Source: Candidatus Cloacimonadales bacterium (GTDB lineage: Bacteria; Cloacimonadota; Cloacimonadia; Cloacimonadales; JAIOQZ01). From it: a stretch of DNA of 64,000 nt. This document shows positions 2,966-46,150 of the stretch, in pieces; position 1 is the first letter of the stretch, and the number at the start of each line of letters is the position of its first letter. Below the pieces are notes generated by a model. The model saw only the letters and a list, made by a program, of their open reading frames with translations. It did not search any database and was not told the DNA's origin. The stretch lies in the NCBI GenBank assembly GCA_942492065.1, contig CALODV010000013.1, forward strand, positions 20,989 to 84,988, written 5' to 3'. A program made the position numbers and the translations under genes.

Positions 2966-3201
2966 TGAATATTACGATTAGATCGCACAAAAAACTTGCA
3001 GGAGATATCGACAGATATATAGTCAAGGTACCATCCGAGGAACTGGTGTACTTTGGGTACATTATAGAAGCTTTCGAAGGATTCTGTAATTACTCTACAA
3101 TTACCCGGGGCAGTGAAAAACTGATTCAGGTGGATGCGTCTCCGGACTACAATGATATTGTCATGGAAATTATAGACTTCCTGAAAGGCTGGGAGCTGTA
3201 G
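2965..3201 (+). CDS. Small hypothetical protein overlapping the lon stop (TAATG junction)
   Basis: 78-aa ORF starting at ATG inside the lon stop context. No recognisable motif. Confidence 0.35.
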   Translation: MNITIRSHKKLAGDIDRYIVKVPSEELVYFGYIIEAFEGFCNYSTITRGSEKLIQVDASPDYNDIVMEIIDFLKGWEL

Positions 3202-3601
3202 ACATTCTACAAACCGCGTAGAGGCAACCGGACGGTTGTCTTAATAAATGCATGAAAAGTGATTGTCAGTATTCAAGAATTTCCTGCTTGTTATGGACTT
3301 ATGGGATATCACAGGTTACACCCGACAGATCTTATTTCTATTTTAATGGGGTTTGTCTGCAAACGGAACAGCTCCAATAGAGCTTTATACACACACGTCC
3401 ACCTTCGATATCCATCCCTCTTCTTTGAGGGGAATTTGCAATTCCTTTGCTTTGATTTGACTTTAGTACCTCCCTGTGAGAAATCCTCTATCGTAAGTAC
3501 GAAAAATCGACTTAATTCTTTCTTAAGATAATAATTCCGATGTAAGGTTTGAGCCTAACCCACATTTTGAACAGCAATTAGAATTCTTCCAACCAAATTT
3601 C

Positions 3602-3631
3602 AACATATTTATTGACAATCTCCTGAACAAA
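3602..3631 (+). promoter_or_regulatory. Sigma70-like promoter upstream of add (TTGACA, 17-nt spacer, gTAAAAT)
   Basis: Hexamers read directly in the sequence. Predicted leader of about 145 nt before the add ATG. Confidence 0.4.
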
Positions 3632-3783
3632 ACAGTAAAATTGTATGTTAAGCTGACTAAGCAGGATAAACTAATATTTTGCAATCCCAGCGTTATAGTT
3701 ATCTTATTATAATTAACTGAATCCCGGTTCTGACAACCAAAAAATACAACATAAAAAATATATGAATAATTAAGGAGGAAAAT

Positions 3784-4857: not shown

Positions 4858-4867
4858 CGGAGGATTG

Positions 4868-5437
4868 ATGAGCACTGTTGAAAAATTGCTGATAGAAGCA
4901 AAAGCATTACTTAAAGGTCACTTTAAACTTACTTCAGGGAGACATTCCGATACTTACATTGAGAAGATCAAATTGATACACGATCCGGAAAAAGTATCTC
5001 AATTATGTGAACTGCTTGCCGAAAAACTGAAAGATGTTGAGGCAGACGTTATTGTTGGACCTGCAATGGGCGGAATTGTACTCGCTTATGAAGTAGCAAA
5101 GAAACTTGGTAAAAAATTTGTTTTTACTCAGCGTAAAGACGGTGAAATGACAATCCGCAGCGGTTTCCCAATCAGTGCCGGAGATAAGGCAGTTATCATT
5201 GAAGACATCGTTACAACCGGCGGTTCTGTATTTGAAGTACTCGAAGCACTCAAGAAAAGAGAAATAAACGTAACTGCTATAGGGCTGATTGTTGACAGAT
5301 CCGGCGGTAAAACAGATTTCGGACATCCTACCTATGCCCTGCATACTGTAGACATCCAGTCTTACCCACCGGAAGAATGTCCTCAATGCAAAGCCGGAGA
5401 TCCTATCACAACTCCGGGATCAAGCGATAAAAAGTAA
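4868..5437 (+). CDS. pyrE: Orotate phosphoribosyltransferase
   Basis: PRPP-binding motif VIIEDIVTTGGS. ATG at 4868 after GGAGGA. The track start at 4865 is a TTG. Confidence 0.9.
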   Translation: MSTVEKLLIEAKALLKGHFKLTSGRHSDTYIEKIKLIHDPEKVSQLCELLAEKLKDVEADVIVGPAMGGIVLAYEVAKKLGKKFVFTQRKDGEMTIRSGFPISAGDKAVIIEDIVTTGGSVFEVLEALKKREINVTAIGLIVDRSGGKTDFGHPTYALHTVDIQSYPPEECPQCKAGDPITTPGSSDKK

Positions 5438-5460
5438 TTCAATAATATCATATTATATAT

Positions 5461-5494
5461 GGGCTATCTATCTCAGATAGCCCTTTCTTTTTTA
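5461..5494 (+). terminator. Intrinsic terminator after pyrE
   Basis: Hairpin GGGCTATCTATCTCAGATAGCCC followed by a T-run. Confidence 0.6.
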
Positions 5495-5552
5495 TTTACA
5501 ATTTATACACCTGTATTTTGTTTGATTCTAATTAATAATCAGGAGCTTTTCG

Positions 5553-7271: not shown

Positions 7272-7391
7272 TAACATCCAGGAATAAGCATTTCAAGATT
7301 ATGATTGTTATATAGACTGTCATTGAATTGCTATAGATAAAATTTGACAAAAAAGATCAAAATCTCATTTTCCAGTGTAATGGAGAAATTT

Positions 7392-8384
7392 ATGAAAATA
7401 GGTATTGTCGGAGCAACAGGGGCAGTAGGCAGAGCTATGATTGATCAGGTCAGTTCAATCAAAGACAGCAGTTTTAGTGAAATTGATCTTCATCTTTTCG
7501 CCTCCCAGAAGTCTGCCGGGCAGATATTGAAATTCAGAGACAGGAAAATTGTCGTGAAAACTCTAACCGAAGAATCAATGCTTGATAAGTTCGATTATCT
7601 TCTCTTCTCAGCCGGTGGATCAATCTCAAAACACTTTGCTCCCATTGCAGCACAAGCAGGAAACACAATAATTGACAACTCGTCTGCATTCAGAGCTGAG
7701 CATAGTATTCCTTTGGTTGTACCTGAAATTAATTATCATGTTTTAGATAATTACAAAGGAGTCATTGCCAATCCTAATTGTTCAACCATTCAAATGGTAA
7801 TGGCATTAGCAGATCTACATCAGATCTATTCAATTATGGAGATAGTTGTCAGCACATACCAAGCTGTTTCAGGTGCAGGAAACAACGGAATCATGAGCTT
7901 AAAAAATGAGGAAAACAATATTAAGTTCCAATCCACCTTTAGCCATACAATACGAAATAACGTAATACCTCAGATTGGAGATATCAACGAAGATGGATAT
8001 TGCAGTGAAGAGCTCAAAATGCTTAATGAAACGAGAAAGATTTTCAATTGTCAGGATATTAATATTTCAGCAACAACAATCAGAGTGCCTGTAATTCATG
8101 GTCATACATTATCAGTTCATGTAAGATTTAAGAAAAAAGTTGATATTTACGACTCAGCATGTATTCTATCTAAAACTAAACATGTGAAGCTACATAATGA
8201 AATTATTACTCCAAAGTACATTGAGAATAACCCTGAACGCGAGTATTCTCACGTTTGCAGACTAAGAAAAGGTCTGGATGATTACTCTCTTAATTTTGTT
8301 AACATCGCACATAATGTTTTTGTTGGCGCAGCTACAAACGCTGTAAGAATAATGATTGAACATGAAAAAATGAATAAAGGATAA
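7392..8384 (+). CDS. asd: Aspartate-semialdehyde dehydrogenase
   Basis: Begins MKIGIVGATGAVG (NAD-binding) and has the active-site NPNCSTI. The likely true start is the ATG at 7392 with GGAG Shine-Dalgarno. The track start at 7344 is a TTG. Confidence 0.9.
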   Translation: MKIGIVGATGAVGRAMIDQVSSIKDSSFSEIDLHLFASQKSAGQILKFRDRKIVVKTLTEESMLDKFDYLLFSAGGSISKHFAPIAAQAGNTIIDNSSAFRAEHSIPLVVPEINYHVLDNYKGVIANPNCSTIQMVMALADLHQIYSIMEIVVSTYQAVSGAGNNGIMSLKNEENNIKFQSTFSHTIRNNVIPQIGDINEDGYCSEELKMLNETRKIFNCQDINISATTIRVPVIHGHTLSVHVRFKKKVDIYDSACILSKTKHVKLHNEIITPKYIENNPEREYSHVCRLRKGLDDYSLNFVNIAHNVFVGAATNAVRIMIEHEKMNKG

Positions 8385-8387
8385 ATT

Positions 8388-8819
8388 ATGCCTATCTGGG
8401 ATAAGTTTGAACAAGCAGAAGAATCAGTATCCAGAGAAATAGTAATATATAAAAAACATAAAGTATTTCTATATAATGTAAGAATCAGCAATGAATCTAA
8501 AGTATTGAAGCAATGTTTGGATTTTGTGCAGAATGATGCTAAAAAAAGTGGAAGATACTTTATTGTCTTTAATGCCAAATTCGTTAAAACAGATACAACA
8601 AATCTAATGGGACTGCATAGCGTAATAAATGAATACAAAAAAATGTTATTCAGTTCAAGACTGGAAAAATTCGCATTGATTATAAAAAGTTTTACATCTC
8701 ACAGAAGAGTGATTACTCTCTTTGATGATATTTTTGATGAGAACAAAGTAAGCAGAAAAAAGTACAACTACTTTTCAATTGCAAAAAAGGATAATTATCT
8801 GGAATGGCTTCTGAAATAA
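8388..8819 (+). CDS. Hypothetical protein, co-operonic with radC
   Basis: 143-aa ORF with ATG plus AAAGGA. Its 3' end overlaps the radC start by 16 nt. Confidence 0.45.
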   Translation: MPIWDKFEQAEESVSREIVIYKKHKVFLYNVRISNESKVLKQCLDFVQNDAKKSGRYFIVFNAKFVKTDTTNLMGLHSVINEYKKMLFSSRLEKFALIIKSFTSHRRVITLFDDIFDENKVSRKKYNYFSIAKKDNYLEWLLK

Positions 8820-9493
8820 ACGGGAATGAAAATTCAAAGCATAAAGCTAGGTTGAGAGAAAGGTATCTTAAAGACGGGTTAGCAGGATTTCATGATTATG
8901 AAGTGCTGGAGATAATACTATCATACTCAATTATCAGAAAGGACACTAAACAGATTGCAAAAGATCTGTTGAAAAAATTTCATAACCTTAATAATGTATT
9001 TCAGGCTCCACCTCAACTGTTAGCAGAAATTGAAGGTGTGGGAGAAAGAACAGCCTCCTTAATCAAGCTTTTCAGAGATGTAAACGTTTTCAGATTACAG
9101 GAACATATAATAGGTAAAGATTTCTTCAAATCCTCTGATGACATTTTCAATTATGTACACTCCTATTACAAGGGACTCAAAAATGAAGAGTTCAAAATAA
9201 TATATCTCAGTGTAAAAAATACAATTCTGTTTGAGGAAACTCTCTTCAAAGGTACTGTAAACGAAGCAAAGATATATCTAAGAGTCATAATTGAGCATAT
9301 TATTCTATGTAATGCTGCTTCTATTGTGATCGTACACAACCATCCTGGGGGTACAACTCAACCCTCCAAAGAGGACATCCTTATAACTGAAAAGATTAAA
9401 ATGGCTATAAATATGATTAATGTCCACCTTCTTGATCATCTCATTATCAGCAACAATGAATACTATTCCTTCGTTGGAGCAGGTCTGATTTAG
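8804..9493 (+). CDS. radC: RadC-family JAB-domain protein
   Basis: N-terminal helix-hairpin-helix-like region and C-terminal JAMM motif HNHPGG…S…D. Confidence 0.85.
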   Translation: MASEINGNENSKHKARLRERYLKDGLAGFHDYEVLEIILSYSIIRKDTKQIAKDLLKKFHNLNNVFQAPPQLLAEIEGVGERTASLIKLFRDVNVFRLQEHIIGKDFFKSSDDIFNYVHSYYKGLKNEEFKIIYLSVKNTILFEETLFKGTVNEAKIYLRVIIEHIILCNAASIVIVHNHPGGTTQPSKEDILITEKIKMAINMINVHLLDHLIISNNEYYSFVGAGLI

Positions 9494-9804
9494 TTGAATC
9501 GATATTTTTTGCTATGTAAACAACCGAAACACTGTAACCAGTGTAGACAGACAGACTACAATGTTAACATGGTATACACCTTTTACAAAATGACTATTTG
9601 GTTTACAATAGAGTTTACAGTTATCGAAATCACCTGAATTACAGTGAATCAGCACCAAAATAACTGCCGAATTCACACTACACCTATCTGGATACTATTT
9701 TAGAGCCTGTAATTACTTGTATTTTAAGGTATTAGAGACTAATTCCCTCTAAATGTCATTATTATCAACTATAGATGTTCCACAAACTGGTCTGAGAATT
9801 GGAG

Positions 9805-32921: not shown

Positions 32922-34121
32922 CTACTTGTAAAATGGTTTGATTACTCTTTCCAGCACTCCATGGAGCTTGGATATTGCAACCCCGTAGTTGGTTATCGGA
33001 ACTCCTCGTCGATTACACTCACGCATTCGTCGGATCATCTCCATTCTGTTTGTCATACAGGCCCCACAATGAAGCACAAGCTTATACTCCTCCAGATTAT
33101 CCGGGAAATCATGACCTGAGTATACATCAAACTTAATATCCTTACCGGTATACTGTCTCAGCCAACGTGGAATCTTTACTCTGCCAATATCGTCAGCCTG
33201 AACATGATGGGAACAGGACTCAGCTATAACAACCTTGTCTCCGTCCTCAAGCTTATCTATCGCAGATGCTCCATCTACAAGCATACCCAGTTCACCTTTA
33301 TATCTAGCGAACAGTGTTGAGAATGTTGTCAGAGGAATCTCTTCAGGTACATCTCCGTCAACCTTAAGAATCACCTGAGAGTCAGTAATAATTAGATCTG
33401 GTGGATTTTTCAGCTTCATAAGCGAGTCTTCCAGCTCACGTTCTTTAACCATAATACCGATGGCATCATTATCGAGAATTTCTCTCAACACCTGAACCTG
33501 CGGCATAATCAGTCTACCCTTAGGTGCAGCTAAGTCAATTGGTACAACCAGCACAACCTGATCTCCGGGGTTAACCAGATCACCCACAAGAACTCTTTCA
33601 GCAAGAAATTCCGTCGGAACCAGATCAGCCATTTTCTCTTTCATATCTCTGATGTTCTTCCCCGATTTACTCGAAACTGAGATATAAGGCAAACCAATTA
33701 ATCTGCAATAATCCTTGTTGGATTTATCAACTTCTGATATATCATTCTTGTTAAACACAACCATGGTAGTTATACTCAGATTTCGCACTTCCTCAATGAT
33801 TGCTTTGACATCATCTGTTATACCGTGTTCATCTGTTACGATAAGAGCAATATCTGTACGCCAGAGGACTTTACGTGTTGACTTCACTCGCTTCTCCCCC
33901 AACTCACCAAGGTCATCTATTCCGGCTGTATCTATTATAGAAACCGGGCCGATGGGCAACAGCTCATAGTTCTTTTTAACCGGATCTGTAGTTGTTCCGG
34001 GAGTATTGGATACAATCGATATATCCTGACTGGTCATGGCGTTTATCAGGGAGGACTTCCCTGCGTTACGCTTACCGATAATAGCTATATTGCAACGTTC
34101 ACCTTTAGGAATTGCCGGCAT
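32922..34121 (-). CDS. hydF: [FeFe]-hydrogenase maturation GTPase HydF
   Basis: G1 motif GKRNAGKSS and the C-terminal CxHx(n)HCxxC motif (CSHH…HCGAC). ATG at 34121 after AAGGAG. The track start at 34166 is further upstream. Confidence 0.9.
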   Translation of the reverse strand: MPAIPKGERCNIAIIGKRNAGKSSLINAMTSQDISIVSNTPGTTTDPVKKNYELLPIGPVSIIDTAGIDDLGELGEKRVKSTRKVLWRTDIALIVTDEHGITDDVKAIIEEVRNLSITTMVVFNKNDISEVDKSNKDYCRLIGLPYISVSSKSGKNIRDMKEKMADLVPTEFLAERVLVGDLVNPGDQVVLVVPIDLAAPKGRLIMPQVQVLREILDNDAIGIMVKERELEDSLMKLKNPPDLIITDSQVILKVDGDVPEEIPLTTFSTLFARYKGELGMLVDGASAIDKLEDGDKVVIAESCSHHVQADDIGRVKIPRWLRQYTGKDIKFDVYSGHDFPDNLEEYKLVLHCGACMTNRMEMIRRMRECNRRGVPITNYGVAISKLHGVLERVIKPFYK

Positions 34122-35184
34122 CTTTACTCCTTGCCTTAAAGTGAGGAGAATCACCAAGTTCCCCATAGCCTATTGTTTCACCAACAGATTCTATTCTGTT
34201 CTCCAGACATGCTCTGCACATGCTGGCATTTTCATCTACACATGGTTTATCATCATATAAGAGGTATTTTTCTCTGTATTTAGTATCTGTAAGAACAGGC
34301 ATGATAATATTTGCCCCGGCCTTTAATCCGTACTCTCTACCAAGCGGATCAAGTGCCTGCAATGCCGTTGTTGAGGCTATGTTAACATCCTTCAGGAAAA
34401 GACGAGTCAGGGAAATCATTTTGAGTGCTTTTCCCAGCTGAACTTTCTTGTCATAATCGGGCATGGAGTTTGCCATAGGAGTATCCTGATGCACAACATA
34501 AGGTCCCATTCCTATCATATCAATATCGTGCTCCTTGAAGAACATGATATCGTTCACCAGATCCTCGTAAGTCTGGTTCGGTAGCCCGATCATTACACCT
34601 GTTCCAACCTGATAACCTGTTTCACGCAGATATTCCAGGCATCTCAATCTCTCTGTATGATCGTGCGTTGCAGGATGAAGGCTTTTATACAGTTCCTCAT
34701 TGCTGGACTCAATTCTCAGCAGGTATCTTGTCGCACCTGCTTCGAACCATCTTCTGTAGGTTTCTTTTGATTGTTCACCCAGAGAAAGTGTGATTCCCAG
34801 CTCCTGATTAGAAAGCTTTTTGATGTTGATCAGCAGATCCTCTATGTAATCTACAAATTCTTTGTCACAGCGTTCTCCGGATTGTAGTACAACAGAACCG
34901 TATTTCATCTTCCAGGACCATTCTGCTGCTTCCAGAATCTCTTCCTTCTTCATGAAATATCTGTTTACTTTGCTGTTGCTCTTTCTGATCCCGCAATAAA
35001 AACAGTCTTTATCGCAGATGTTACTAAGCTCGATTATTCCTCTGAAATATACTTTATTGCCTACATTCTGCTCTTTTACAGCGTAAGCCTGCTTGTAGAG
35101 CTCTTCTATAAGAGCCTGATCTTCGGATTGAAAAACCTCGATCATTTGTTGTTTGGTAAGATTTTTAAAATCGTAATTCATCAT
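34105..35184 (-). CDS. hydE: [FeFe]-hydrogenase maturase HydE (radical SAM)
   Basis: CDKDCFYCG radical-SAM motif. Biotin-synthase-like length. Sits between aspA and hydF. Confidence 0.9.
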   Translation of the reverse strand: MMNYDFKNLTKQQMIEVFQSEDQALIEELYKQAYAVKEQNVGNKVYFRGIIELSNICDKDCFYCGIRKSNSKVNRYFMKKEEILEAAEWSWKMKYGSVVLQSGERCDKEFVDYIEDLLINIKKLSNQELGITLSLGEQSKETYRRWFEAGATRYLLRIESSNEELYKSLHPATHDHTERLRCLEYLRETGYQVGTGVMIGLPNQTYEDLVNDIMFFKEHDIDMIGMGPYVVHQDTPMANSMPDYDKKVQLGKALKMISLTRLFLKDVNIASTTALQALDPLGREYGLKAGANIIMPVLTDTKYREKYLLYDDKPCVDENASMCRACLENRIESVGETIGYGELGDSPHFKARSKDAGNS

Positions 35185-36619
35185 CCGTATATCCTAATTT
35201 GTACATTTTTGTAGGAGACAGAATCTCCTGGATTTTTTCTTCACTAATTATATTGTTTTCTATGAGATATTCACTTATTGACTGCCCCTTCTTCCCTGCT
35301 TCGATCACGATTTCTTCTACTTTATCGTAACCAAGAACCGGAACCAGCACAGTTGCAATTATTGGAGAATTAAACAGTTTCTGTCTGCATACATCCTTAT
35401 TGGCTGTTATGCCGTCTATACAATGAGTTCTGAACTTAATTGAAGCTGTGTTGAGCAGTTCCAGCGACTGCATGATGTTATGTGTAAGTAATGGCAGAAA
35501 CTGGTTCAGCTCAAGATTCCCCAGAGCTGTAACCTGAGTTATAACTGCATCATTTCCCATTACCTGTAAGGCTGATTGTGCGACAAACTCCGGAATCACA
35601 GGGTTTACTTTGGTTGGCATGATTGTTGATCCCTTCTGAACTTTGGGGAGGTTGATCTCCCCCAGTCCTCCCTGAGGTCCACTGCTCAGCAGTCGAAGAT
35701 CGTTAGCAATCTTGAACAGATTGGCAGCAAAAGCTTTGAGCATGCCTGAAACCTCTGCGAAAGCATCTACATTCTGGGTTGCATCAATCAGGTTTTCACC
35801 TCTGGCAAGATTCAGTCCCGTCAGCCTTCTCAGTACTTCAGTAACCTTGAAGATATACTTGCGTGGAGCACCAAGTCCTGTACCGATAGCGGTTCCTCCA
35901 AGATTAACAACCTTGATACGTTCTCTGGACTTGAATATACGCCATCTGTCACGAGCTATAGCATCGGAATATGCACTGAACTCCATCCCAAGGGTCAACG
36001 GTACAGCATCCTGAAGCTGTGTTCTGCCTGTCTTGACAACATTTTGAAACTCACGCTCCTTTTCCTGTAGTGACTCCTGCAAAAATGTTATGCTCTTTTC
36101 CAGCTCTTTAAGATACAGCAGTATAGCAACCTTGAGAGAAGTGGGATAAACATCATTCGTTGACTGATGCATATTCACATCTTTCAGAGGATGGATATAA
36201 CTGAAATCTCCTACAGCATGTCCGGCTTTCACATTAGCAAGATTCGCTATAACCTCGTTGAAATTCATGTTTGTTGAAGTACCGGCACCACCCTGGAAAG
36301 GTGACACAACAAACTCATCATGATGTTCACCTGCAATAATCTCCTTGCACACAGCTTCGATCAGGTCAGCTTTCTCCTGATCCATATAGCCAAGCAGACT
36401 GTTAGTTCTGGCACATGCCTGTTTCACATAAGCAAAAGCTTTTATGAACATGCCGTGCATCTTCTCAGGGGATTCCCCGAAATTATCCACAGCTCTGCAG
36501 GTTTGTGCCCCGTACATCACATTTGACGGTACTTCGCATTCATCTGTTATATTAGTTCTTATCTCTTTAGAAGTATAAGTCTCTTTCACCGTTTTTAATC
36601 CTCTGGATTCTTTTTTCAA
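35165..36619 (-). CDS. aspA: Aspartate ammonia-lyase (aspartase/fumarase class II family) embedded in the hyd maturase operon
   Basis: Signature GSTIMPTKVNP. N-terminus aligns to AspA (IRxxxDxxGxxEVPxxxxYG). Probably a TTG start. Confidence 0.85.
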   Translation of the reverse strand: MKKESRGLKTVKETYTSKEIRTNITDECEVPSNVMYGAQTCRAVDNFGESPEKMHGMFIKAFAYVKQACARTNSLLGYMDQEKADLIEAVCKEIIAGEHHDEFVVSPFQGGAGTSTNMNFNEVIANLANVKAGHAVGDFSYIHPLKDVNMHQSTNDVYPTSLKVAILLYLKELEKSITFLQESLQEKEREFQNVVKTGRTQLQDAVPLTLGMEFSAYSDAIARDRWRIFKSRERIKVVNLGGTAIGTGLGAPRKYIFKVTEVLRRLTGLNLARGENLIDATQNVDAFAEVSGMLKAFAANLFKIANDLRLLSSGPQGGLGEINLPKVQKGSTIMPTKVNPVIPEFVAQSALQVMGNDAVITQVTALGNLELNQFLPLLTHNIMQSLELLNTASIKFRTHCIDGITANKDVCRQKLFNSPIIATVLVPVLGYDKVEEIVIEAGKKGQSISEYLIENNIISEEKIQEILSPTKMYKLGYTDDELRF

Positions 36620-37973
36620 CTTCAGCTTTCATTTTGCTGTCATCAAGCTTTTCAAGTTCTCTTTCAATAAGTTTGATTCCTGAAGCTCTTGTCTCAGGAG
36701 TAGCATAGTCTTCCACATATTCGAGGAATGTAAGTATAGCATTTGGTGAGCAGTAACGTTTAACAAATCCGGGAATAGCAAATTCCATGAAGTGTTCACC
36801 GGTTCTGCCAAGTCTGTAGCAGCCTGTGCAGAAACTAGGAATAAAATTGTGATCTGCAAGCTCTTTGATAACTTCGTCCAGAGTTCTGGAGTCGGATAGT
36901 GTGAACTGCTCTTTCTTGCTTGTATGATCTTCTGAAGAATAATCACCTATACCAATTGCTGATCCTGCATCGATCTGGGATACGCCGTAATTGATAACTT
37001 CATTACGAATATCAATCGGTTCACGAGCAGTGAGAATCAGTCCGGTGTATGGTACCGCAAGTCGAAGAATAGCAACCAGTTTTTTGAAGTCATCATCAGA
37101 TACAAGGTGAGGAGGTCGTTTTGTGAAATCTGTATTGAAGGCAGGCTCTATCCGTGGGAATGAAATAGTATGAGGTCCAATGTTAAAGCGTTCTTCCAGA
37201 TGCATAGTGTGATAAAGCAATCCCATTACTTCAAAACGCCAGTCATACAAGCCCATGAGAGCTCCGATGCCGAGGTCATCGATTCCTGCTTCCATTGCTC
37301 TGTCCAGACCGTGAAGTCTCCACAGATAGTTACTCTTAGGTCCGCGAGGGTGAACTTGTTTATAGGTTTCTTCGTGGTATGTTTCCTGGAATATCTGGTA
37401 AGTTCCGATTCCTGCTTTCTTTACGATTTTGTAACCTTCTACATCAAGTGGAGCTGCGTTGATATTAACGCGACGGATTTCCCCGTTTCCTTTCTTAGTA
37501 GCATAGACTTTCATTACTGTGTCATGAATAAACTGTGCATCATATTTAGGGTGTTCTCCATATACCATAATCAGGCGTTTGTGACCGTTATCCACGAGTG
37601 ATTCTACTTCCATGCCGAGTTTCTGCATAGTGAGAGTATTTCTCTCCGCTTCGGTATTGGAAGATCGGAATCCGCAGTACACACAATCGTTAATGCAGTC
37701 GTTTCCAACGTAAAGAGGAGCAAAAAGCACGATTCTGTTACCGTATACTCTTTCTTTAAGAGTACGAGCTCCCTGTTTGATTTCTTCAACCAGATCTTCG
37801 TCTGTTGCGTTTATAAGACATGCCATTTCATAAGGATCAAGGCGGTTTTTATCCAGTGATTTCTGAATAATATCCTTAATTTGAGCTCTGTCAGGATTCT
37901 TTGTTTTAGTAAGATCCTCAAAGATTTTGTCATTCGGAATGAATGATTTGAGACCTGTTGTATCTAGTACCAT
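36567..37973 (-). CDS. hydG: [FeFe]-hydrogenase maturase HydG (radical SAM tyrosine lyase)
   Basis: CINDCVYCGF radical-SAM motif and a C-terminal CTGCYRLG…H auxiliary-cluster motif. ATG after AGAGG. Confidence 0.9.
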   Translation of the reverse strand: MVLDTTGLKSFIPNDKIFEDLTKTKNPDRAQIKDIIQKSLDKNRLDPYEMACLINATDEDLVEEIKQGARTLKERVYGNRIVLFAPLYVGNDCINDCVYCGFRSSNTEAERNTLTMQKLGMEVESLVDNGHKRLIMVYGEHPKYDAQFIHDTVMKVYATKKGNGEIRRVNINAAPLDVEGYKIVKKAGIGTYQIFQETYHEETYKQVHPRGPKSNYLWRLHGLDRAMEAGIDDLGIGALMGLYDWRFEVMGLLYHTMHLEERFNIGPHTISFPRIEPAFNTDFTKRPPHLVSDDDFKKLVAILRLAVPYTGLILTAREPIDIRNEVINYGVSQIDAGSAIGIGDYSSEDHTSKKEQFTLSDSRTLDEVIKELADHNFIPSFCTGCYRLGRTGEHFMEFAIPGFVKRYCSPNAILTFLEYVEDYATPETRASGIKLIERELEKLDDSKMKAEVEKRIQRIKNGERDLYF

Positions 37974-37989
37974 AATTACCTCTGTATTT

Positions 37990-38238
37990 TTAATCTGTTT
38001 TTAATGTTGTGGATTTGACTTTTACGGATTTGATCTGACCCAATTTTCCTGTCAGTGCTCCGAGTTCGTCAGTTGTCATTTCTGCAACTAGAAAAATAAT
38101 TGCAATATCACGGTCTTTCACCGGATACCCTACCCGCAGTAATAGTTCATCTGCGTAGTCATGTAAAATTGTATTAACCTGTTTATACGCTTCTTCGCGT
38201 TTATATACTGTTATAGAAACATTATGTATTCTTTTCAT
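37990..38238 (-). CDS. TM1266-like small ACT-fold protein (so-called iron-only hydrogenase system regulator family)
   Basis: 82 aa starting at the ATG at 38238 (MKRIHNVSITVYKREEAY…). Sits immediately upstream of hydG as in many hyd loci. The track start at 38268 is a GTG. Confidence 0.7.
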   Translation of the reverse strand: MKRIHNVSITVYKREEAYKQVNTILHDYADELLLRVGYPVKDRDIAIIFLVAEMTTDELGALTGKLGQIKSVKVKSTTLKTD

Positions 38239-38239
38239 G

Positions 38240-38275
38240 AAAAAAACCTCCGGTCCACACAGGGACACGGAGGTT
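38240..38275 (-). terminator. Strong intrinsic terminator hairpin whose 3' arm contains the GGAGG Shine-Dalgarno of the TM1266-like gene
   Basis: Minus strand reads ACCTCCGTGTCCctgtgtGGACCGGAGGT, then TTTTTTT, then C-ATG. Confidence 0.6.
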
Positions 38276-38437: not shown

Positions 38438-40231
38438 TTAGTGATGATCTTTACCTGTAACTTGCTCAACTACATGACCCTTGAATTTTTCTCTTGAGTA
38501 GTAGTGAGTGTGAAGCAGATGGTGAGCTTTATGTCCACCAGGACCTTCAGGAAGGAAGTTACCTTCGCCATAGAGTCCCATTACAGCTTCGTTATGGTGT
38601 GAGCATCTTGCAGGAAGATTTCTATCATCTTCATACAGTCTTTCACCACGGCGTGCACGGTCAGCCATTGAGTTACCGAATGGTTGTCCACCACCGCCAA
38701 CACATCCACCAGGGCAAGCCATGATTTCAATGAATGTATATTCGCTCTTACCTGTTTCTTTGATTTGCTTTTGAACTTTTTCCATGAGTTTTCTTGCATT
38801 TCCAAGTCCGTGAGCAACAGCAACTTTAACAGTAAGGTCTGGTGTGAGAGCAACTTCAGCTTCTTTGATACCTTTAAGACCACGAACAGGTGTTATTTCT
38901 ACATCACCAAGGTCTTTTTTATTTACAAGCCAGTATACTGAACGCAGTGCAGCTTCCATAACACCACCTGTAGCACCAAAAATAGTTCCGGCACCGGTGT
39001 GATGTGAAAGTTCATAATATGGTTCTTCTTCAGGAAGGTTTTTGAAATCCATACCTGCTTCGTGAATCATTCTGATTAATTCTCTGGTTGTAAGAACGTA
39101 ATCTACGTCTTGATATTTAGAATCAGACATTTCATCTCTTTGAGCTTCGAATTTTTTAGCTGTACAAGGCATGATTGATACAGATACTATATCTTTTGCA
39201 TCAATACTTTTTTGTTCAGCATAGTATGTTTTTGCAAGTGTACCCATCATTTGCTGAGGTGACTTTGCAGTTGATACATGGTGTGCAAGATCAGGGAAGA
39301 ATGTTTCCATGAACTTAACCCAACCAGGTGAACATGATGTTATACATGGTAACGGACCGCCATTAACAACACGATCAACAACTTCTGAACCTTCTTCGAT
39401 GATTGTAAGGTCAGCAGTAAAGTTTGTATCAAATACACCGTCGAAACCAAGTCTCTTAAGTGCTGCATACATTTTACCAATATTTACTTCACCAAATTCC
39501 ATTCCGAATTCTTCACCGAGTGAAGCGCGGATAGATGGAGCTTCCTGTACAACAACGTGTTTTGTAGGATCAAGAAGAGCATCCCATACTTTTGCTGTAT
39601 CGTCTTTTTCATGTAATGCGCCTGTTGGGCAGTATACTGTACACTGACCACAATTAACACATACAGAGTTAGCCATACCAAGACTTAAAGCTGTATCGAT
39701 TTTTGTTTCGAATCCACGGTTTGAGAATGTCAGTGCATTAACTGTCTGACCATCTGAACAAACCTGAACACAGCGTCCACAGTTGATACATTTATTAACG
39801 TCTCTAACTATAGAAACTGAAGAATAATCAACTGGAACTTTTTTAAGCATGCTTGGAACAGCTTCAGGATCGATATCTAATGTATACGCGATTTCCTGTA
39901 ATTCACATTTACCGTTCGCAACACATGTAGGACATGTAACATCGTGATTTGCAAGTATAAGTTCGATGAGAGTTTTTCTTGCTTCACGGAGTTTTTTGCT
40001 GTTTGTGGTTACTTTCATTCCTTCCCAAACTTCTGTTGAACAAGCTCTTTTTGGGACTGGAGAGCCTTCGATATCTACAATACAAACACCACATGCTGAA
40101 GTTGGTTTCCAGTCAGGGTGGTAGCATAATGTAGGAACGTTGTAACCTGCTTTCTTCGCAGCCTGGATTAACGTTGTACCTTGAGGTACTTCTACCTCAA
40201 TTTTGTTAATCGTAAGTTTAACATTACTCAT
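38438..40231 (-). CDS. hydA: [FeFe] hydrogenase catalytic subunit HydA (M3-type: 2Fe-2S, His-ligated 4Fe-4S, two ferredoxin-like 4Fe-4S, H-domain)
   Basis: The N-terminal 2Fe-2S Cys pattern, the His-ligated HDVTCPTCVANGKC, and two CxxCxxCxxxCP motifs precede the H-cluster motifs. L1 reads TSCSPGW, L2 reads MPCTAKKFE, and L3 reads EIMACPGGCVGGGGQP. Confidence 0.92.
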   Translation of the reverse strand: MSNVKLTINKIEVEVPQGTTLIQAAKKAGYNVPTLCYHPDWKPTSACGVCIVDIEGSPVPKRACSTEVWEGMKVTTNSKKLREARKTLIELILANHDVTCPTCVANGKCELQEIAYTLDIDPEAVPSMLKKVPVDYSSVSIVRDVNKCINCGRCVQVCSDGQTVNALTFSNRGFETKIDTALSLGMANSVCVNCGQCTVYCPTGALHEKDDTAKVWDALLDPTKHVVVQEAPSIRASLGEEFGMEFGEVNIGKMYAALKRLGFDGVFDTNFTADLTIIEEGSEVVDRVVNGGPLPCITSCSPGWVKFMETFFPDLAHHVSTAKSPQQMMGTLAKTYYAEQKSIDAKDIVSVSIMPCTAKKFEAQRDEMSDSKYQDVDYVLTTRELIRMIHEAGMDFKNLPEEEPYYELSHHTGAGTIFGATGGVMEAALRSVYWLVNKKDLGDVEITPVRGLKGIKEAEVALTPDLTVKVAVAHGLGNARKLMEKVQKQIKETGKSEYTFIEIMACPGGCVGGGGQPFGNSMADRARRGERLYEDDRNLPARCSHHNEAVMGLYGEGNFLPEGPGGHKAHHLLHTHYYSREKFKGHVVEQVTGKDHH

Positions 40232-40248: not shown

Positions 40249-41811
40249 CTATTTTTCAATTCTTGCTAAAAATTCATCCCGGAAGTTCTCAATAGCGCTT
40301 TTTACCGGCATGATTAATGATTGACCTAATGCACAGAAGGAAGACTGCTGCATTATCTCTGAAAGAGTAATCATGTAGTCTAAATCTTCAACTGTAGCTT
40401 CACCTTTCTGAACTTTCTTGATCAGTTTTTCGAGCTGTTTTGTACCAAGAGCACATGGACGGCATTTACCGCATGACTCATGCTCGAAGAAATGAATGAT
40501 AGATGCAAGCATTTCTACCATTGGAACATCTTCATTCATAACAAGAATAGCTCCGGAACCAAGAACAGCCGCGTTGTCACCAAGACTTTCATAGTCCATC
40601 TTAACGTTGACAAGATCTTCGTTAAGGATAACGCCTGCACTACCACCGATAAGAGCGGCTTTAAATTTCTTGCCGTCTTTCATTCCACCGCCGTACTCGT
40701 TGATGATTTTACGTAATGGTGTACCCATTTCTACTTCCGTAAGACCTGGCATTTCGACATCACCGAGTATGGTGTATACTTTTGTACCGGTTGATTTTTC
40801 GGTTCCGAGTTTAGCATACCACTCGCCGCCATTGTTAATGATCGCAGGAACATTAGCTATAGTTTCAACGTTGTTGACAACTGTAGGCTTTTGCCAAGCA
40901 CCTTTAACACCTGGGAAAGGTGGCTTGGAACGTGGGTTTCCACGATTTCCTTCCATAGATTCAATCAATGCAGTTTCTTCACCGCATACATAAGCACCTG
41001 CGCCAATCATCACTTCTATGTCAAGATTAAATCCTGAATCGAAGATATTTTCTCCAAGGAGACCATACTCACGAGCCTGCTCGATCGCTTTATTCAAACG
41101 GTTTATACATAATTTGTATTCACCGCGAATATATATGTAAGCTTTGGTTGCGCCAACAGCATATGATCCGATCATAATACCTTCGAGAAGTTTATGAGGA
41201 TCACCTTCCATAATAAGACGATCTTTGAAAGTTCCAGGTTCACCTTCGTCAGCATTGATAACAAATAATTTTTGTTCAGCTTCGATTGGTGCTGTGAAAC
41301 TCCATTTGAGTCCGGCAGGGAATCCTGCTCCACCACGTCCTCTCAGACCTGATTTCTTAACTTCGTCAATGATAGCCATTGGCTTCATGTTAAGAAGTGC
41401 TTTTTCCCATGCTATGTAACCGCCTGCTCCAAGATATTCTTCAATGTTTTCAGGATCGATAACACCTGAGTTTTTGAGAACGATTCTTGTGTCGTAGTTC
41501 ATGTCAATCTGAACTTTTTCAGGAGCTGTCATAAGCAGTCTTTTTACAGGACGGCCTTTTACAAAGTGCTCGTTAACAAGTTCTGCAGCATCTTCTACTT
41601 TGAGGTTAATATATGTAACGTTGTCAGGATAAACAACACAGTTCACGCCTTTATCAAAGAAATTAAGTGAACCGGTTTCAAGTACTTCTACTTCTTCCTG
41701 AAGACCGTTTTTTTCTATTTCAGCTTTGATTGCAGCTTGAACAGCACTTGTTCCTGCAGCAATACTAGCATCGTCCATACCGAATAAAATGTGAGTGCGT
41801 GTAGTTTTCAT
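40249..41811 (-). CDS. hydB: NuoF-like flavoprotein subunit HydB (FMN/NADH-binding)
   Basis: GRGGAGFPAGLKW FMN site and ESCGKCRPCALG 4Fe-4S motif. The N-terminal ~110 aa have a thioredoxin-like fold without Cys. Confidence 0.9.
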   Translation of the reverse strand: MKTTRTHILFGMDDASIAAGTSAVQAAIKAEIEKNGLQEEVEVLETGSLNFFDKGVNCVVYPDNVTYINLKVEDAAELVNEHFVKGRPVKRLLMTAPEKVQIDMNYDTRIVLKNSGVIDPENIEEYLGAGGYIAWEKALLNMKPMAIIDEVKKSGLRGRGGAGFPAGLKWSFTAPIEAEQKLFVINADEGEPGTFKDRLIMEGDPHKLLEGIMIGSYAVGATKAYIYIRGEYKLCINRLNKAIEQAREYGLLGENIFDSGFNLDIEVMIGAGAYVCGEETALIESMEGNRGNPRSKPPFPGVKGAWQKPTVVNNVETIANVPAIINNGGEWYAKLGTEKSTGTKVYTILGDVEMPGLTEVEMGTPLRKIINEYGGGMKDGKKFKAALIGGSAGVILNEDLVNVKMDYESLGDNAAVLGSGAILVMNEDVPMVEMLASIIHFFEHESCGKCRPCALGTKQLEKLIKKVQKGEATVEDLDYMITLSEIMQQSSFCALGQSLIMPVKSAIENFRDEFLARIEK

Positions 41812-42266
41812 TATTCGCCTCCTCTGATTTCATCGATGATCTTTTTAACTCTGTCAGGAGTAAGGTCACCGTAAACATCTTCGTTCACCATCATTACAGG
41901 AGCGTTACCGCAAACACCGAGGCATGCGCAGAGTTCAAGAGTAAATTCACCGTCTTGAGTTGTTTCGCCTGTTTTTACTCCAAGATAATCTTTGAGTGTT
42001 TTGTGAACAGCGTCTGAACCTTTAAGCCAGCATGGAGGAGATTCACACAAACGGATAATGTTCTTTCCTCTTGGTTTTGTTGAGTACATTGTGTAGAATG
42101 TAAGAACACCGAAAATGTGACTTTCCGGTACATTGAGATAGTTAGATACAGCAGCAACAGCTTCTTCAGAGATATAATGCTGAGGATGCTGATCCTGAAT
42201 ATCATGCAGGATGTAAATCAGATTAGATTTTACAGCTTCGTACTTTTCGAAAATCTTATCGTACAT
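41811..42266 (-). CDS. hydC: NuoE-like [2Fe-2S] subunit HydC
   Basis: Four Cys in CESPPCW…CACLGVCGNAP. TAATG coupling with hydB. Confidence 0.88.
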   Translation of the reverse strand: MYDKIFEKYEAVKSNLIYILHDIQDQHPQHYISEEAVAAVSNYLNVPESHIFGVLTFYTMYSTKPRGKNIIRLCESPPCWLKGSDAVHKTLKDYLGVKTGETTQDGEFTLELCACLGVCGNAPVMMVNEDVYGDLTPDRVKKIIDEIRGGE

Positions 42267-42300: not shown

Positions 42301-42663
42301 TTATTCTGCTGCAGCAACGTATTCTGCTACAACTTCTCCACCGATGATGTGTTTTTCCATTACTTCGGCAACTTTTTCAGGATTCATGTATCCGTATGTA
42401 ACTTGAGGCATGTCTTTTACGTATACATCTACTACAGGTTCCATTGAGGAAATTCCTTTTTCTCCTGTTTGTGTTACAACAACATCAGTAAGCCCTTTTG
42501 CCTGGATTGCTTCCAGGAATGCTTTCATTACCTGACGGGCACCCATTGCGATTCCGGATGTTCCCATGGAAACAACAATCTTTACACGGTGATCAGCATT
42601 TCTTAAAGCCATGTTTTGCTGAGCTTTTTCTCTGATCTTACGTAATTCTTCGAGTTTTTTCAT
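42301..42663 (-). CDS. Small thioredoxin-like (NuoE/HndB-fold) protein lacking all cluster-ligating cysteines
   Basis: 120 aa with the pattern KIVVSMGTSG…VVVTQTGEKGISSMEPVVDVYV…Y…PE, which matches the Trx-like 2Fe-2S ferredoxin fold with Cys replaced. GGAGG Shine-Dalgarno. Confidence 0.55.
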   Translation of the reverse strand: MKKLEELRKIREKAQQNMALRNADHRVKIVVSMGTSGIAMGARQVMKAFLEAIQAKGLTDVVVTQTGEKGISSMEPVVDVYVKDMPQVTYGYMNPEKVAEVMEKHIIGGEVVAEYVAAAE

Positions 42664-42697
42664 CCAATTCCTCCAAATAATTTTGGTTTAGTTTTTT

Positions 42698-43342
42698 TTA
42701 TTTGTATTCTATCAAATTTCTTTTGTTATGGTGGTAGGTTACCACTGCCATGTTGCAGTACAGACAAGTCTGCTCCACAAACACATATTCAGGCACTTTA
42801 ATGCGGACGGTAGTAAAGTTCCACAAAGTAGTAATCTTGTTATCGACAAGCATATCCGCCGCATTCTGTGCTTCTGAAGCAGGGGTTGCAATGATTCCAA
42901 CCTGAATATCAAATTCATCACGGATTTTTTCGAGGTCTTCATTTGAATAGACTTTGAGTCCTTTTACATGTGTTCCGAATTTTGCAGGATCGTTATCTGT
43001 TAGAGCTTTAATACTTAAGCCTGTAACATTCATATCGTGATAACGCAGCAGCGCTCTGGCGAGGTTTCCTGCCCCAACCACGATTGTATTGAGGGAATGA
43101 TCCCAGCCTAAGAATTCTTCGATTAAAATGATTGACTCGTCAACTTTGTGACCGACTCTTGGTTTCCCTGTGAGTCCTGCGATAGTAAGGTCTTTTCTGA
43201 CCTGAGTAGGATATATTTTTAAATTGCGTGCTATTTCTGAAGCCGAAGTAAATTCCACATCGGCTGCTTTGAGTTCTTTTAAAAATTCAAGGTATAACGG
43301 TAAACGACGTATAGTATACAATGAAACAGAATCATTCATCAT
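42698..43342 (-). CDS. rex: Redox-sensing transcriptional repressor Rex
   Basis: N-terminal winged helix (YTIRRLPLYLEFL) and a Rossmann GxGxxG region (VVGAGNLARAL). ATG at 43342 after GGAAGGA. The track start at 43360 is a TTG. Confidence 0.85.
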   Translation of the reverse strand: MMNDSVSLYTIRRLPLYLEFLKELKAADVEFTSASEIARNLKIYPTQVRKDLTIAGLTGKPRVGHKVDESIILIEEFLGWDHSLNTIVVGAGNLARALLRYHDMNVTGLSIKALTDNDPAKFGTHVKGLKVYSNEDLEKIRDEFDIQVGIIATPASEAQNAADMLVDNKITTLWNFTTVRIKVPEYVFVEQTCLYCNMAVVTYHHNKRNLIEYK

Positions 43343-43699
43343 TAATTCAGTTCCTTCCAATTCAATATTTTTATATCAATATTTTTGGGTCGATTTTAAA
43401 GTCAAGCTAAATATTAGTTTTTTTACACCTTTTTTCGGGGTATAAATCAATGGCTATTATAAAGTGTGTTATGGCTGTATTTTGGCTTGAGATAAGGGCT
43501 GAATGTTAGCCAAGGGTAACTTGGGGGAAAGGTATTTCAGAAGGAGGATTTAGCGATTAACAGTTAAGTTTTCACTACTAGGATTCAAAAAGGATTGACA
43601 GACTTATCTTTGATCTTAGCATTGTCCTATAATTCATTATAGGAGTGACCATTATGATTCGTGAGCTTACAGAAAAAATGAAAAAGGAAAGATATATCC

Positions 43700-43947
43700 C
43701 GCCACCGAGTTTGGCGAAAACAGTCACTAAATTGGCGAAAACGCACTTTTCAGCCCAAAATGACCGTTTGAAATGAACATCTGACCTTCACGAGTTTGGC
43801 GAAAATCAAAACCACCCGAAAAAACTTGCACGAGTTTGGCAGTAAATTCAACAAAAAATGCCAATCTTGTGCAAGTCGAACAGTCACAAGATTGGCAAAA
43901 ATTCAGAGTTATGAACCTATAAACGATCACTAATTTGGCGAAAAATC
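43700..43947 (+). repeat. Array of six direct, imperfect ~19-bp repeats (core TTCAC-N-AG/AA-TTTGGC(G/A)AAAA) at the prophage/host junction
   Basis: Copies at about 43703, 43725, 43787, 43828, 43883 and 43926, all in the same orientation. Spacing is irregular (22 to 62 bp). Confidence 0.7.
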
Positions 43948-44694
43948 CCAGTTACCTATCAGCAATTCCTTATAAATTAGATCACCGGTACGCACAATTC
44001 CCTTCTGTCTGGAGAGTGGAATCATAGGAAATTCAGCGAATAACTCCCGGGCTTCCGGGCAGTCATCAAGTGAAAGCAGCCATTTACCTTTGATCGTCCT
44101 CAGACAATCCCGAAACGCCTTATGATCAAACTCTCTGGCATTATCATATCTGGCACCGGTAACATAAGGCGGATCAAAGTAAAAGAAGGCTGAAGGGCTG
44201 TCATAGTACTTAATCAAGTCTTTATAGTCCTTACCCTCGATCTGTACATGGTCAAGCCTTTTAGACAGCGCTCGTATCGCATCCAGCTTGTTTCTCAGAC
44301 TCTTCTGAGCTCCTTCTCTTCTTGCACCAAACGAGTCCCCCTGAGCTCCAAAACTGAAGGTAATCACATAGAAAAAACGAGCAGCCTTTTGCAGCTCAGT
44401 AAGCCCTTCCCATTGCATCATCTTGCCGAACATGATCCTGCCGGCAGGTAGTTTCTCAAGTTCGATTATAAGGGCTTCAGGATGATACTTCACCTGAAGA
44501 AACAGGTTAGTCAACCGCTCATCCAGATCATTATAAACCTCGGTTTTAGCCCATCTGTCTTTATACAGTAAAAGCCAGCCGGCACCACCGAACGGCTCTA
44601 TGTACTTTCCAATGTTATCAGGCACAAATTGTGCAATAGTTTTACGTAGTAGACGCTTGCTTCCCATCCATGGAATAATTGAATTTGTAGGCAT
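43930..44694 (-). CDS. dam: Orphan DNA adenine methyltransferase (Dam, D12 class)
   Basis: Motifs PWMGSKR, EPFGGAGW and catalytic DPPY. ATG at 44694 overlaps the upstream ORF stop (TAATG). The track start at 44730 is a GTG. Confidence 0.85.
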   Translation of the reverse strand: MPTNSIIPWMGSKRLLRKTIAQFVPDNIGKYIEPFGGAGWLLLYKDRWAKTEVYNDLDERLTNLFLQVKYHPEALIIELEKLPAGRIMFGKMMQWEGLTELQKAARFFYVITFSFGAQGDSFGARREGAQKSLRNKLDAIRALSKRLDHVQIEGKDYKDLIKYYDSPSAFFYFDPPYVTGARYDNAREFDHKAFRDCLRTIKGKWLLSLDDCPEARELFAEFPMIPLSRQKGIVRTGDLIYKELLIGNWDFSPN

Positions 44695-44894
44695 TAAATT
44701 GTTGCTCCTGAAGTAGAAAAAGCGTCGCACCCTCGACCAAGAACACTCCTATTCAAGTGCTTGGGCATAAACCCAAAGATGCGACGCAATATATCAGTTT
44801 TAATTGATTTATCGGTCGCTTGAATAGGTCTCAGCTCTTGGTCGAAGCTAATAACAAGGTTTGATTTTGAAATTAAATTGTCAACTGTAATCAT
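44694..44894 (-). CDS. Small hypothetical phage protein between the endolysin and dam
   Basis: 66-aa ORF translationally coupled at both ends. Confidence 0.4.
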   Translation of the reverse strand: MITVDNLISKSNLVISFDQELRPIQATDKSIKTDILRRIFGFMPKHLNRSVLGRGCDAFSTSGATI

Positions 44895-44900: not shown

Positions 44901-45488
44901 TTACACTCTCTTCAACCAGCCACGCACATATTTCCTCTGACTCGGTTTCATACTCGCTATAACTATATAATGATATCCCTGCATAATACGCATCATCTCA
45001 TTCAAATATGCAATATCACCGCATTTAATGCAGGTCTGCACTCGTTTATAAGTCTGCCTGCCGGCAATCCCATCCTTAATAAGATCTTCACCATACTCCC
45101 GACTGCCGTCCTTCATTTTCCTGTTTAAAAGATTAAGGCAGATCTGCAAGAATTCAGCAGCAGTCTCCTGACCGCAATTCACATTAATATCAAACATCCG
45201 ATGTGCCAATTCTTCATCCGTTATATTGTCATAACCCGGTTTCTCCCAGTACTTGAGCCTGAACAGAGCTTTTGCAGCCTGTCGTAAAGCCGGATCGTTG
45301 TTCAATACTTCAACATATTTATTTGGAAAAGTCTCCTTAATTTCATCAACGTATTTCCACCATTCCCAGTCTCCGTTAAACATTCTGGCAATACCAAAAA
45401 CAGTCTCACCGCCTGCATCATCCGGATCACATGAATAACCGGCTTCAATCAAAGCTAATTTAGGGTACATCTTATCAAAATAGTCCAT
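44901..45488 (-). CDS. Endolysin, glycoside hydrolase family 108 lysozyme-like with a peptidoglycan-binding C-terminus
   Basis: N-terminal MDYFDKMYPKLALIEAGYS…DDAGGETVFGI matches the GH108 N-terminus. ATG at 45488 after AAGGAG. Confidence 0.75.
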   Translation of the reverse strand: MDYFDKMYPKLALIEAGYSCDPDDAGGETVFGIARMFNGDWEWWKYVDEIKETFPNKYVEVLNNDPALRQAAKALFRLKYWEKPGYDNITDEELAHRMFDINVNCGQETAAEFLQICLNLLNRKMKDGSREYGEDLIKDGIAGRQTYKRVQTCIKCGDIAYLNEMMRIMQGYHYIVIASMKPSQRKYVRGWLKRV

Positions 45489-45502
45489 TCTAACTCCTTT
45501 GC

Positions 45503-46150
45503 TTATATAAATGTAAAGCCAGATCCACCCACAACCATCCATGCATGGTCGCTGTTGGATACAAGCATTACGCAATCTCCAAGACTATCAAATTCTATCG
45601 TTCCTTCGTTTCCTTCGCCTCCCGGATATATAACACATTTATCTGCACTATTAGCTGTTAGCGTTGCTTTATTACCAGTCTTCAGTTTGGTGTATGTTGC
45701 AATAACGAATTTACCTGCTTTTCCTGCAATTGCCGGTAATACTACAGCAACATCCTTATCATTGGTATCAGTATCAAATTCAAGGACTTGCAGATCAGAA
45801 TCAGTTAGAACAACCGTTGATATCGAATTGATAACCGTCTTGGCTGTCATACCGTCGCATTGCATAAATCTCCCGGGATTAAGCCCAAGCCAGCCGGTAT
45901 GTAGAAATCCACCTGTAGGATTATCTTTACTGACCACTATGCCATTATTACCCTGACTCAGCGAATAACCATCTAATGTATCGGCATCGATACCGGCAGC
46001 AGTTAATTCAGCTATTACCTTATTTACAATCGTCTCTATCAGAACCGTTCTGACTCTATCATCTGAAGAGCTGTCTGCTCCTTTATCTACAATCAGTACA
46101 TCCTTATCATCAGGATTACTATCTAATGGATATGTATTAGGTCGTGGCAT
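45503..46150 (-). CDS. Phage tail fibre or receptor-binding-like protein
   Basis: 215 aa, Gly/Thr/Asn-rich and beta-rich. Lies last in the tail module before lysis. GGAGG Shine-Dalgarno. Confidence 0.4.
   Translation of the reverse strand: MPRPNTYPLDSNPDDKDVLIVDKGADSSSDDRVRTVLIETIVNKVIAELTAAGIDADTLDGYSLSQGNNGIVVSKDNPTGGFLHTGWLGLNPGRFMQCDGMTAKTVINSISTVVLTDSDLQVLEFDTDTNDKDVAVVLPAIAGKAGKFVIATYTKLKTGNKATLTANSADKCVIYPGGEGNEGTIEFDSLGDCVMLVSNSDHAWMVVGGSGFTFI

Follow-up and report, generated by a model that had tools for sequence, protein, structure and literature searches.

A serine-type L1 motif in HydA of an NADH-linked [FeFe] hydrogenase gene cluster from a Candidatus Cloacimonadales bacterium

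The hydA gene and its L1 motif

A 64,000-nucleotide stretch of contig CALODV010000013.1 from a Candidatus Cloacimonadales bacterium (assembly GCA_942492065.1), referred to here as the window, carries a hydrogenase gene cluster on its minus strand in the order Rex, a 120-aa protein, HydC, HydB, HydA, a TM1266-family protein, HydG, aspartate ammonia-lyase, HydE and HydF. HydA is the catalytic subunit of an [FeFe] hydrogenase, and its L1 motif reads TSCSPGW in place of the textbook TSCCPxW, so that the relay cysteine (Cys300) is kept and the adjacent ligand position is occupied by a serine (Ser301). With a probability of about 0.85, HydA is an ordinary, catalytically competent member of group A6, in which TSCSPGW is the standard motif, Cys300 acts as the proton relay, Ser301 stands at the fourth ligand position of the [4Fe-4S]H cubane, Cys296 has no ligand role, and the enzyme works in an NADH-linked complex. 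The features of hydA are as follows.

38438-40231, minus strand: hydA, encoding a 597-aa M3-type [FeFe] hydrogenase catalytic subunit in an intact open reading frame (ORF)
39320-39346, minus strand: L1 motif C296-I297-T298-S299-C300-S301-P302-G303-W304, encoded by the 27-nt string TGTATAACATCATGTTCACCTGGTTGG
39332-39334, minus strand: C300, the proton-relay Cys, placed by gapless alignment to CpI and Thermoanaerobacter kivui HydA
39329-39331, minus strand: S301, codon TCA, at the fourth [4Fe-4S]H ligand position in gapless alignments
39146-39172, minus strand: L2 motif MPCTAKKFE, starting at residue 354, with the cubane ligand C356 and with K359
38693-38728, minus strand: L3 motif EIMACPGGCVGG, starting at residue 502, with C506 and C510

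The 27-nt string occurs once, inside the hydA ORF, in agreement with the codons given for L1 in a model-generated first-pass annotation of this DNA, which had also correctly called L2 and L3 canonical. The cysteines of the group A signatures MPCxxKxxE (L2) and ExMxCxxGCxxG (L3) are both present, and the two motifs are invariant in an alignment of 43 sequences (A1), where Ser301 is conserved in at least 90%. The Pfam domains of HydA (Fer2_4, NADH-G_4Fe-4S_3, Fer4, Fe_hyd_lg_C and Fe_hyd_SSU) form the full M3-type set, and the protein consists of an N-terminal 2Fe-2S domain, a NuoG-type region with a His-ligated cluster, two Fer4 motifs and an H-domain with large- and small-subunit parts. HydA scores 799.5 bits against NF040763 (NADH-dependent [FeFe] hydrogenase, group A6), a curated full-length hidden Markov model with a cutoff of 765 bits, and the match spans profile positions 1-571 of 571; it further scores 513.8 bits against TIGR02512 (cutoff 405.95) and 318 bits against PF02906. 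Since about 17-20% of sequences have the serine variant, as does an active enzyme of solved structure, the L1 departure does not exclude membership of group A.

The best match of HydA in the PDB is HydA1 of Acetobacterium woodii (7q4v_A, E=1.4e-178). The AlphaFold2 (AF2) model of HydA, used for secondary structure and fold comparison and having a mean predicted local distance difference test (pLDDT) score of 85.6, reaches a template modelling (TM) score of 0.90 to both 8a6t_A and 7q4w_A, and was superposed on HydA of T. kivui and A. woodii (TM 0.90) and on CpI (TM 0.87). The pair C300-S301 falls, without gaps, opposite the two adjacent cysteines of FTSCCPSW (T. kivui) and FTSCCPGW (CpI); C300 is paired with CpI C299, the proton relay, and S301 with the cubane ligand, which is C300 in CpI and Cys299 in T. 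kivui, the latter number being counted from alignment coordinates. T. kivui Cys299 has been described as a ligand of the H-cluster cubane, there named ‘A1’ (Katsyv et al. 2023), and the second L1 cysteine is likewise the ligand in the work of Kertess et al. 2017 (PMC5855289), where it is numbered C115 and its neighbor C114. The assignment made in the first-pass annotation, with the first cysteine as relay and the second position as [4Fe-4S]H ligand, therefore stands. CpI and T. kivui HydA resemble the window HydA in fold, L2, L3, relay Cys and proton pathway, but have Cys at the second L1 position, where the window HydA has Ser; CpI differs further in being monomeric and ferredoxin-dependent.

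A closer counterpart is HydA1 from the A. woodii HydABC complex (PDB 7Q4V/7Q4W/8A5E), which is 49% identical to the window HydA, aligns with it free of gaps across residues 244-363, and reads LPMITSCSPGW in the L1 region. The two proteins share ITSCSPGW, the M3 architecture, a TM score of 0.90 and membership of NF040763 (873.8 bits for A. woodii HydA1, also above the cutoff), and A. woodii HydA1 has Met where the window HydA has Cys296. In A. woodii HydA1, Ser301 replaces the Cys ligand with FTIR (Fourier-transform infrared) signature and activity unchanged, and the HydABC complex displays the canonical Hox, Hred, HoxH and Hhyd FTIR states with normal activity (Katsyv et al. 2023, JACS). By analogy, Ser301 of the window HydA would take the fourth [4Fe-4S]H ligand position, with C356, C506 and C510 retained; serine ligation with normal activity would thus be carried over from the literature on this homolog. 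Serine was found at this position in about 20% of the putative hydrogenases analyzed by Kertess et al. 2017 (PMC5855289), and TSCSPGW in the trimeric hydrogenases of Melainabacteria was remarked on in a 2013 genome paper, the only match of a literature search for ‘TSCSP’. The motif is not mentioned in the review PMC8924675 or in the Syntrophomonas wolfei paper. The serine form is already known as a published feature of a large, active, NADH-linked family.

Conservation of the motif is extensive. TSCSPGW is present in 119 of the 120 nearest homologs (cluster representatives with 61-99% identity to HydA), and all 64 recognizable HydA copies among 66 loci from a species-representative genome collection carry it, down to 44% identity. 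These copies come from Cloacimonadota, Syntrophorhabdaceae, many Clostridia, Brachyspira, Caldisericota and Mcinerneyibacteriota, and include a 99%-identical HydA with the same motif and context signatures on the chromosome of a Candidatus Cloacimonadales metagenome-assembled genome (MAG; locus L001, OY762463.1). In a broader sample, the best 150 representatives after clustering at 50% identity, with L1 columns taken by BLAST-anchored column extraction, TSCCP occurs in 96 sequences and the Cys-Ser form in 26 (17%), in agreement with the published value of about 20%. Across the related loci, the codons used for Ser301 comprise all six serine codons of both families (TCN 51, AGY 14), which points to long-standing selection for serine. 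In a neighbor-joining (NJ) tree, which is rough and was used for the pattern of Ser/Cys change only, 16 of the 17 members of the clade of HydA have Cys-Ser, and serine also appears in scattered other branches. Fitch parsimony on this tree gave at least 20 steps for the Ser/Cys column (other residues counted), and the many changes imply that the serine state does not form one clean monophyletic group. As TSCSPGW is standard across the NF040763 group A6 clade, which contains a well-characterized, active and structurally solved enzyme, the first-pass description of this L1 as non-canonical fails insofar as it meant a rare or novel motif, on the very ground that the annotation itself had named as refuting it.

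Two unusual homologs were encountered in these surveys. The only TSCCPGW sequence among the 120 nearest homologs, P0016 (65% identity), passes NF040763 and is nested in the serine clade of the NJ tree, and it therefore looks like a natural Ser-to-Cys reversion. P0121, a 4122-aa entry of the representative library, has seven tandem H-domain matches, each with MFTSCCASW; it may be a giant multi-hydrogenase polypeptide, or else an artefact of assembly or gene calling.

HydB and the mode of electron transfer

The partner gene directly upstream of hydA is the following.

40249-41811, minus strand: hydB, encoding a 520-aa NuoF-like flavoprotein subunit with non-bifurcating signatures

HydB contains a flavin mononucleotide (FMN) domain, an SLBB domain and a single cluster site, the NuoF-type [4Fe-4S] (Cys447, 450, 453 and 493); its full complement of cysteines is 58, 235, 276, 447, 450, 453 and 493. 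The N-terminal Trx-like domain is devoid of [2Fe-2S] cluster cysteines, C58 being the sole Cys in residues 1-230. No C-terminal 2x[4Fe-4S] region is present in HydB, which has no Fer4 Pfam domains and stops where the NuoF profile stops. B subunits of bifurcating enzymes with PDB structures (A. woodii HydB, NiFe-HydB and NfnB) are 70-80 residues longer at the C-terminus and retain the N-terminal [2Fe-2S] cysteines, for which the window HydB has other residues; the two additional C-terminal [4Fe-4S] motifs are found in these structures as well as in the bifurcating-type hydB genes of related loci. In local motifs, HydB has GEPG-T-F-K-DR against GDPG-A-F-M-DR of the bifurcating PDB homologs, GAGAYVCGEE with Tyr near FMN against the bifurcating GAGAFVCGEE with Phe, and GGSAG against the GGPSG found in all bifurcating-type homologs. 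A. woodii HydB, with 599 aa, GGPSG, Phe, A-F-M and C-terminal Fe-S domains, contrasts on each count with the stripped-down 520-aa HydB of the window.

According to Losey et al. 2020, non-bifurcating enzymes have Thr/Ser and Lys/Ser/Ala at the positions of Thermotoga maritima residues 232 and 234, where bifurcating enzymes have Ala/Glu and Met; they further have Tyr for Phe beside the FMN site, no GGPSG and fewer Fe-S domains in HydB. All four of these sequence characters of the non-bifurcating type are found in the window HydB. The same authors listed Candidatus Cloacimonas among the genera carrying non-bifurcating, ferredoxin-independent NADH-dependent hydrogenases (Losey et al. 2020). The syntroph-type Hyd1ABC of S. 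wolfei shares with the window the trimeric HydABC set and the non-bifurcating HydB characters. Given this match to the published characters, an NADH-only mechanism is the most likely one, and the complex would, on the signatures of HydB, probably couple H2 production directly to the oxidation of NADH, with no part for ferredoxin. HydA would be partnered by HydB (FMN and one [4Fe-4S]) and HydC ([2Fe-2S]). NADH would reduce FMN in HydB, and electrons may then pass from the [4Fe-4S] of HydB through the accessory clusters of HydA to the H-cluster, where H2 would be released, a route that would be feasible where H2 pressures are low, as in syntrophic life. Rex may link expression to the NADH/NAD+ ratio, and maturation would be carried out by the adjacent HydE, HydF and HydG.

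The HydB signatures occur as a set, all or none, across the 66 loci. Beside a TSCSP-type hydA, the hydB gene is of the bifurcating type in A. woodii and most of the Clostridia loci, and of the non-bifurcating type in the window, L001, L011, L014 and L020; the L1 serine does not track the bifurcating or non-bifurcating mode.

Some related loci have a more complex organization. At 2658-9788 of locus L002, and also in L003-L005, L016, L006, L007 and L059, a bifurcating-type module and a non-bifurcating HydC-HydB pair both lie upstream of a single TSCSP-type hydA. The bifurcating-type module comprises a NuoE-like protein (163 aa), a HATPase_c protein (190 aa), the 120-aa protein and a NuoF of 615 aa that has GGPSG and two Fer4 motifs; compared with these relatives, the window retains just the non-bifurcating pair and, from the bifurcating-type module, the 120-aa gene. 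In genomes of the L002 type, a single HydA may work with either of two flavoprotein modules. In three MAGs of Syntrophorhabdaceae/Deltaproteobacteria (L013, L017 and L042), two TSCSP-type hydA paralogs lie at most about 6 kb apart, together with one NuoF-like ORF of the non-bifurcating type and one of the GGPSG type; the latter extends more than 700 residues beyond the FMN motif and is a possible fusion.

Alternative readings and wider meaning

Regarding the mode of electron transfer, the alternative is an electron-bifurcating HydABC as in A. woodii and T. maritima. The top structural and sequence matches of HydA are bifurcating HydABC enzymes, TSCSP-type hydA genes mostly stand beside bifurcating-type hydB in Clostridia, the closest relatives (L002-L005) also encode, within this cluster, a NuoF module of the bifurcating type, and a partner of this type could be encoded outside the 64-kb window. 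The only NuoF-like gene inside the window, however, combines T-F-K, the Tyr, GGSAG, no C-terminal Fer4 and no N-terminal cluster cysteines, and bifurcation in this complex appears unlikely, though it keeps some weight beside the NADH-only mechanism.

Regarding the active site, the first-pass annotation proposed that either the serine or the upstream Cys296 serves as ligand; the serine is favored by the A. woodii precedent of Ser301 (Katsyv et al. 2023), and the part on Cys296 did not hold. A cysteine four residues before C300 is indeed present in the window HydA and its closest relatives, but it is confined to 6 of the 120 homologs, namely the six closest (P0001-4, P0006 and P0007), and to 6 of the 64 genomic copies (L001-L005 and L016). 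Other sequences have V, L, I or M there, with Met in the active A. woodii enzyme. In the AF2 model, Cys296 opens a beta-strand (296-299) and the following helix starts at residue 302, so that a cysteine on the strand, five residues before S301, would not be expected to reach the same Fe without refolding. Lack of conservation and this distance make Cys296 an implausible ligand; its replacing the missing cysteine in this lineage is very hard to credit, and the residue is treated as a substitution particular to this lineage, without a ligand role, at a strand position that is otherwise hydrophobic. Another proposal is that Cys300 shifts to become the fourth cubane ligand, leaving no relay thiol and a slow or sensory enzyme. 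Putative sensory HydS enzymes of groups C and D are not known to carry the relay Cys or the proton pathway. HydS resembles the window HydA in being an [FeFe] hydrogenase that departs from the canonical active-site surroundings; it has a C-terminal [4Fe-4S] cluster with a PAS domain, according to PMC13104023. None of these HydS features is found in HydA, for which a Pfam scan detected neither a PAS domain nor an extra C-terminal cluster domain, and the proton-pathway residues are all conserved: CpI E279, E282, R286, S319 and C299 correspond without gaps to HydA E280, E283, R287, S320 and C300, which are conserved across homologs. A ligand shift could draw on the speculation by Kertess et al. 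2017 (PMC5855289) that a neighboring Cys may substitute as ligand in a Cys-to-Ala variant of CrHydA1, and on the limited resolution of the A. woodii cryogenic electron microscopy (cryo-EM) model. Against it stand the canonical FTIR states and normal activity of A. woodii HydABC with the same motif, the co-operonic hydB and hydC, and the modeled strand-to-helix turn, in which adjacent residues would face different directions; such a shift is highly improbable. A sensory or low-activity variant is at odds with several features: the relay Cys and the proton pathway are kept, a PAS domain is missing, HydB/HydC and HydEFG are encoded nearby, and the A. woodii enzyme has normal activity.

That the serine codon is a sequencing or assembly error, or belongs to a decaying gene, has nothing in its favor except the departure from the textbook motif; with an intact ORF, a 99%-identical genomic copy with the same motif, and clade-wide serine with synonymous codon variation, its chance is practically negligible and it was ruled out. 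It is also improbable that serine ligation represents, instead of a neutral variant, a functional adaptation tuning the cubane potential of NADH-linked multimeric hydrogenases, with the Cloacimonadales-specific Cys296 possibly having a further redox or O2-protective function.

Several points weigh against regarding HydA as an ordinary, active group A6 enzyme of an NADH-linked complex. The engineered C115S variant of CrHydA1 (expressed-protein numbering), which has the same Cys-to-Ser exchange as the window HydA, lost stable cubane assembly and activity, with less than 1 U/mg (Kertess et al. 2017, PMC5855289). With the natural serine clade active, as seen in A. woodii, tolerance of serine would depend on context, but the alignment search found no column that co-varies cleanly with Ser301 as a compensating position would; even at the best positions (310, 416 and 297) the contrast is partial and is confounded by phylogeny. 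The cryo-EM maps of the A. woodii enzyme have a resolution of about 3-3.5 Å, so that ‘ligand’ would be meant in the positional sense, with no resolved Fe-O bond, and the window enzyme is described here from its sequence and a predicted structure. As A. woodii HydABC bifurcates with the same L1 motif, the motif is silent on the mode, and the non-bifurcating assignment would follow from signatures in HydB.

With the window, a large clade that was already described gains a further Cloacimonadales member, and little new follows from this. The more general question, which goes beyond this locus, is why the natural serine clade tolerates an exchange fatal to CrHydA1 and whether the cubane potential is shifted by it. 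The contrast between the dead C115S variant and the active natural clade would imply compensating features, which the Cloacimonadales lineage could help to identify. For annotation, TSCSPGW should not be taken as the mark of an inactive or sensory hydrogenase, and bifurcating and NADH-only enzymes are to be told apart by the signatures of HydB instead of the L1 motif of HydA.

Surrounding genes and minor observations

The remaining genes of the cluster are as follows.

42698-43360, minus strand: rex, the first gene of the cluster, encoding a transcriptional repressor that senses redox state (NADH/NAD+) (NF003994, 223 bits, cutoff 130)
42301-42663, minus strand: 120-aa ORF between rex and hydC, with weak matches to NF041612 and NF041613 (2Fe-2S ferredoxin families) and no Pfam match
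41811-42266, minus strand: hydC, encoding a 151-aa NuoE-like [2Fe-2S] subunit (TIGR01958, PF01257; Cys 74, 79, 115 and 119)
37990-38268, minus strand: TM1266-family putative iron-only hydrogenase system regulator (TIGR03959, PF21699)
36567-37973, minus strand: hydG, encoding an H-cluster radical-SAM maturase (TIGR03955, 507.9 bits)
35165-36619, minus strand: aspartate ammonia-lyase family gene between hydG and hydE (NF008909, 605.7 bits, cutoff 510)
34105-35184, minus strand: hydE, encoding an H-cluster radical-SAM maturase (TIGR03956, 360.3 bits)
32922-34166, minus strand: hydF, encoding an H-cluster maturation GTPase (TIGR03918, 556.7 bits)

The 120-aa ORF contains no Cys and has a 65%-identical ortholog in L002 (3718-4080). 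The aspartate ammonia-lyase ORF overlaps both hydG and hydE, and a link of this gene to H-cluster maturation via nitrogen supply is possible. A search for the Rex operator (TTGTGAANNNNTTCACAA, up to 3 mismatches) gave matches at chance level, none of them upstream of the cluster, including the region 42664-43700. Beyond it, the intergenic stretch that separates rex from a Dam-methylase-like gene contains, at 43706-43944, six copies of a direct repeat of 15-24 nt (minus-strand consensus about TCACNANNTTGGCGAAAA) and two inverted-repeat pairs, which look like iterons or a binding-site array. The Dam-family methyltransferase homolog near the hydrogenase cluster (43930-44730, minus strand) is followed by a holin-associated muramidase-like gene (44901-45575, minus strand) and then by three ORFs without a family match, up to 47794; the Dam/muramidase region may be a remnant of a prophage or mobile element.

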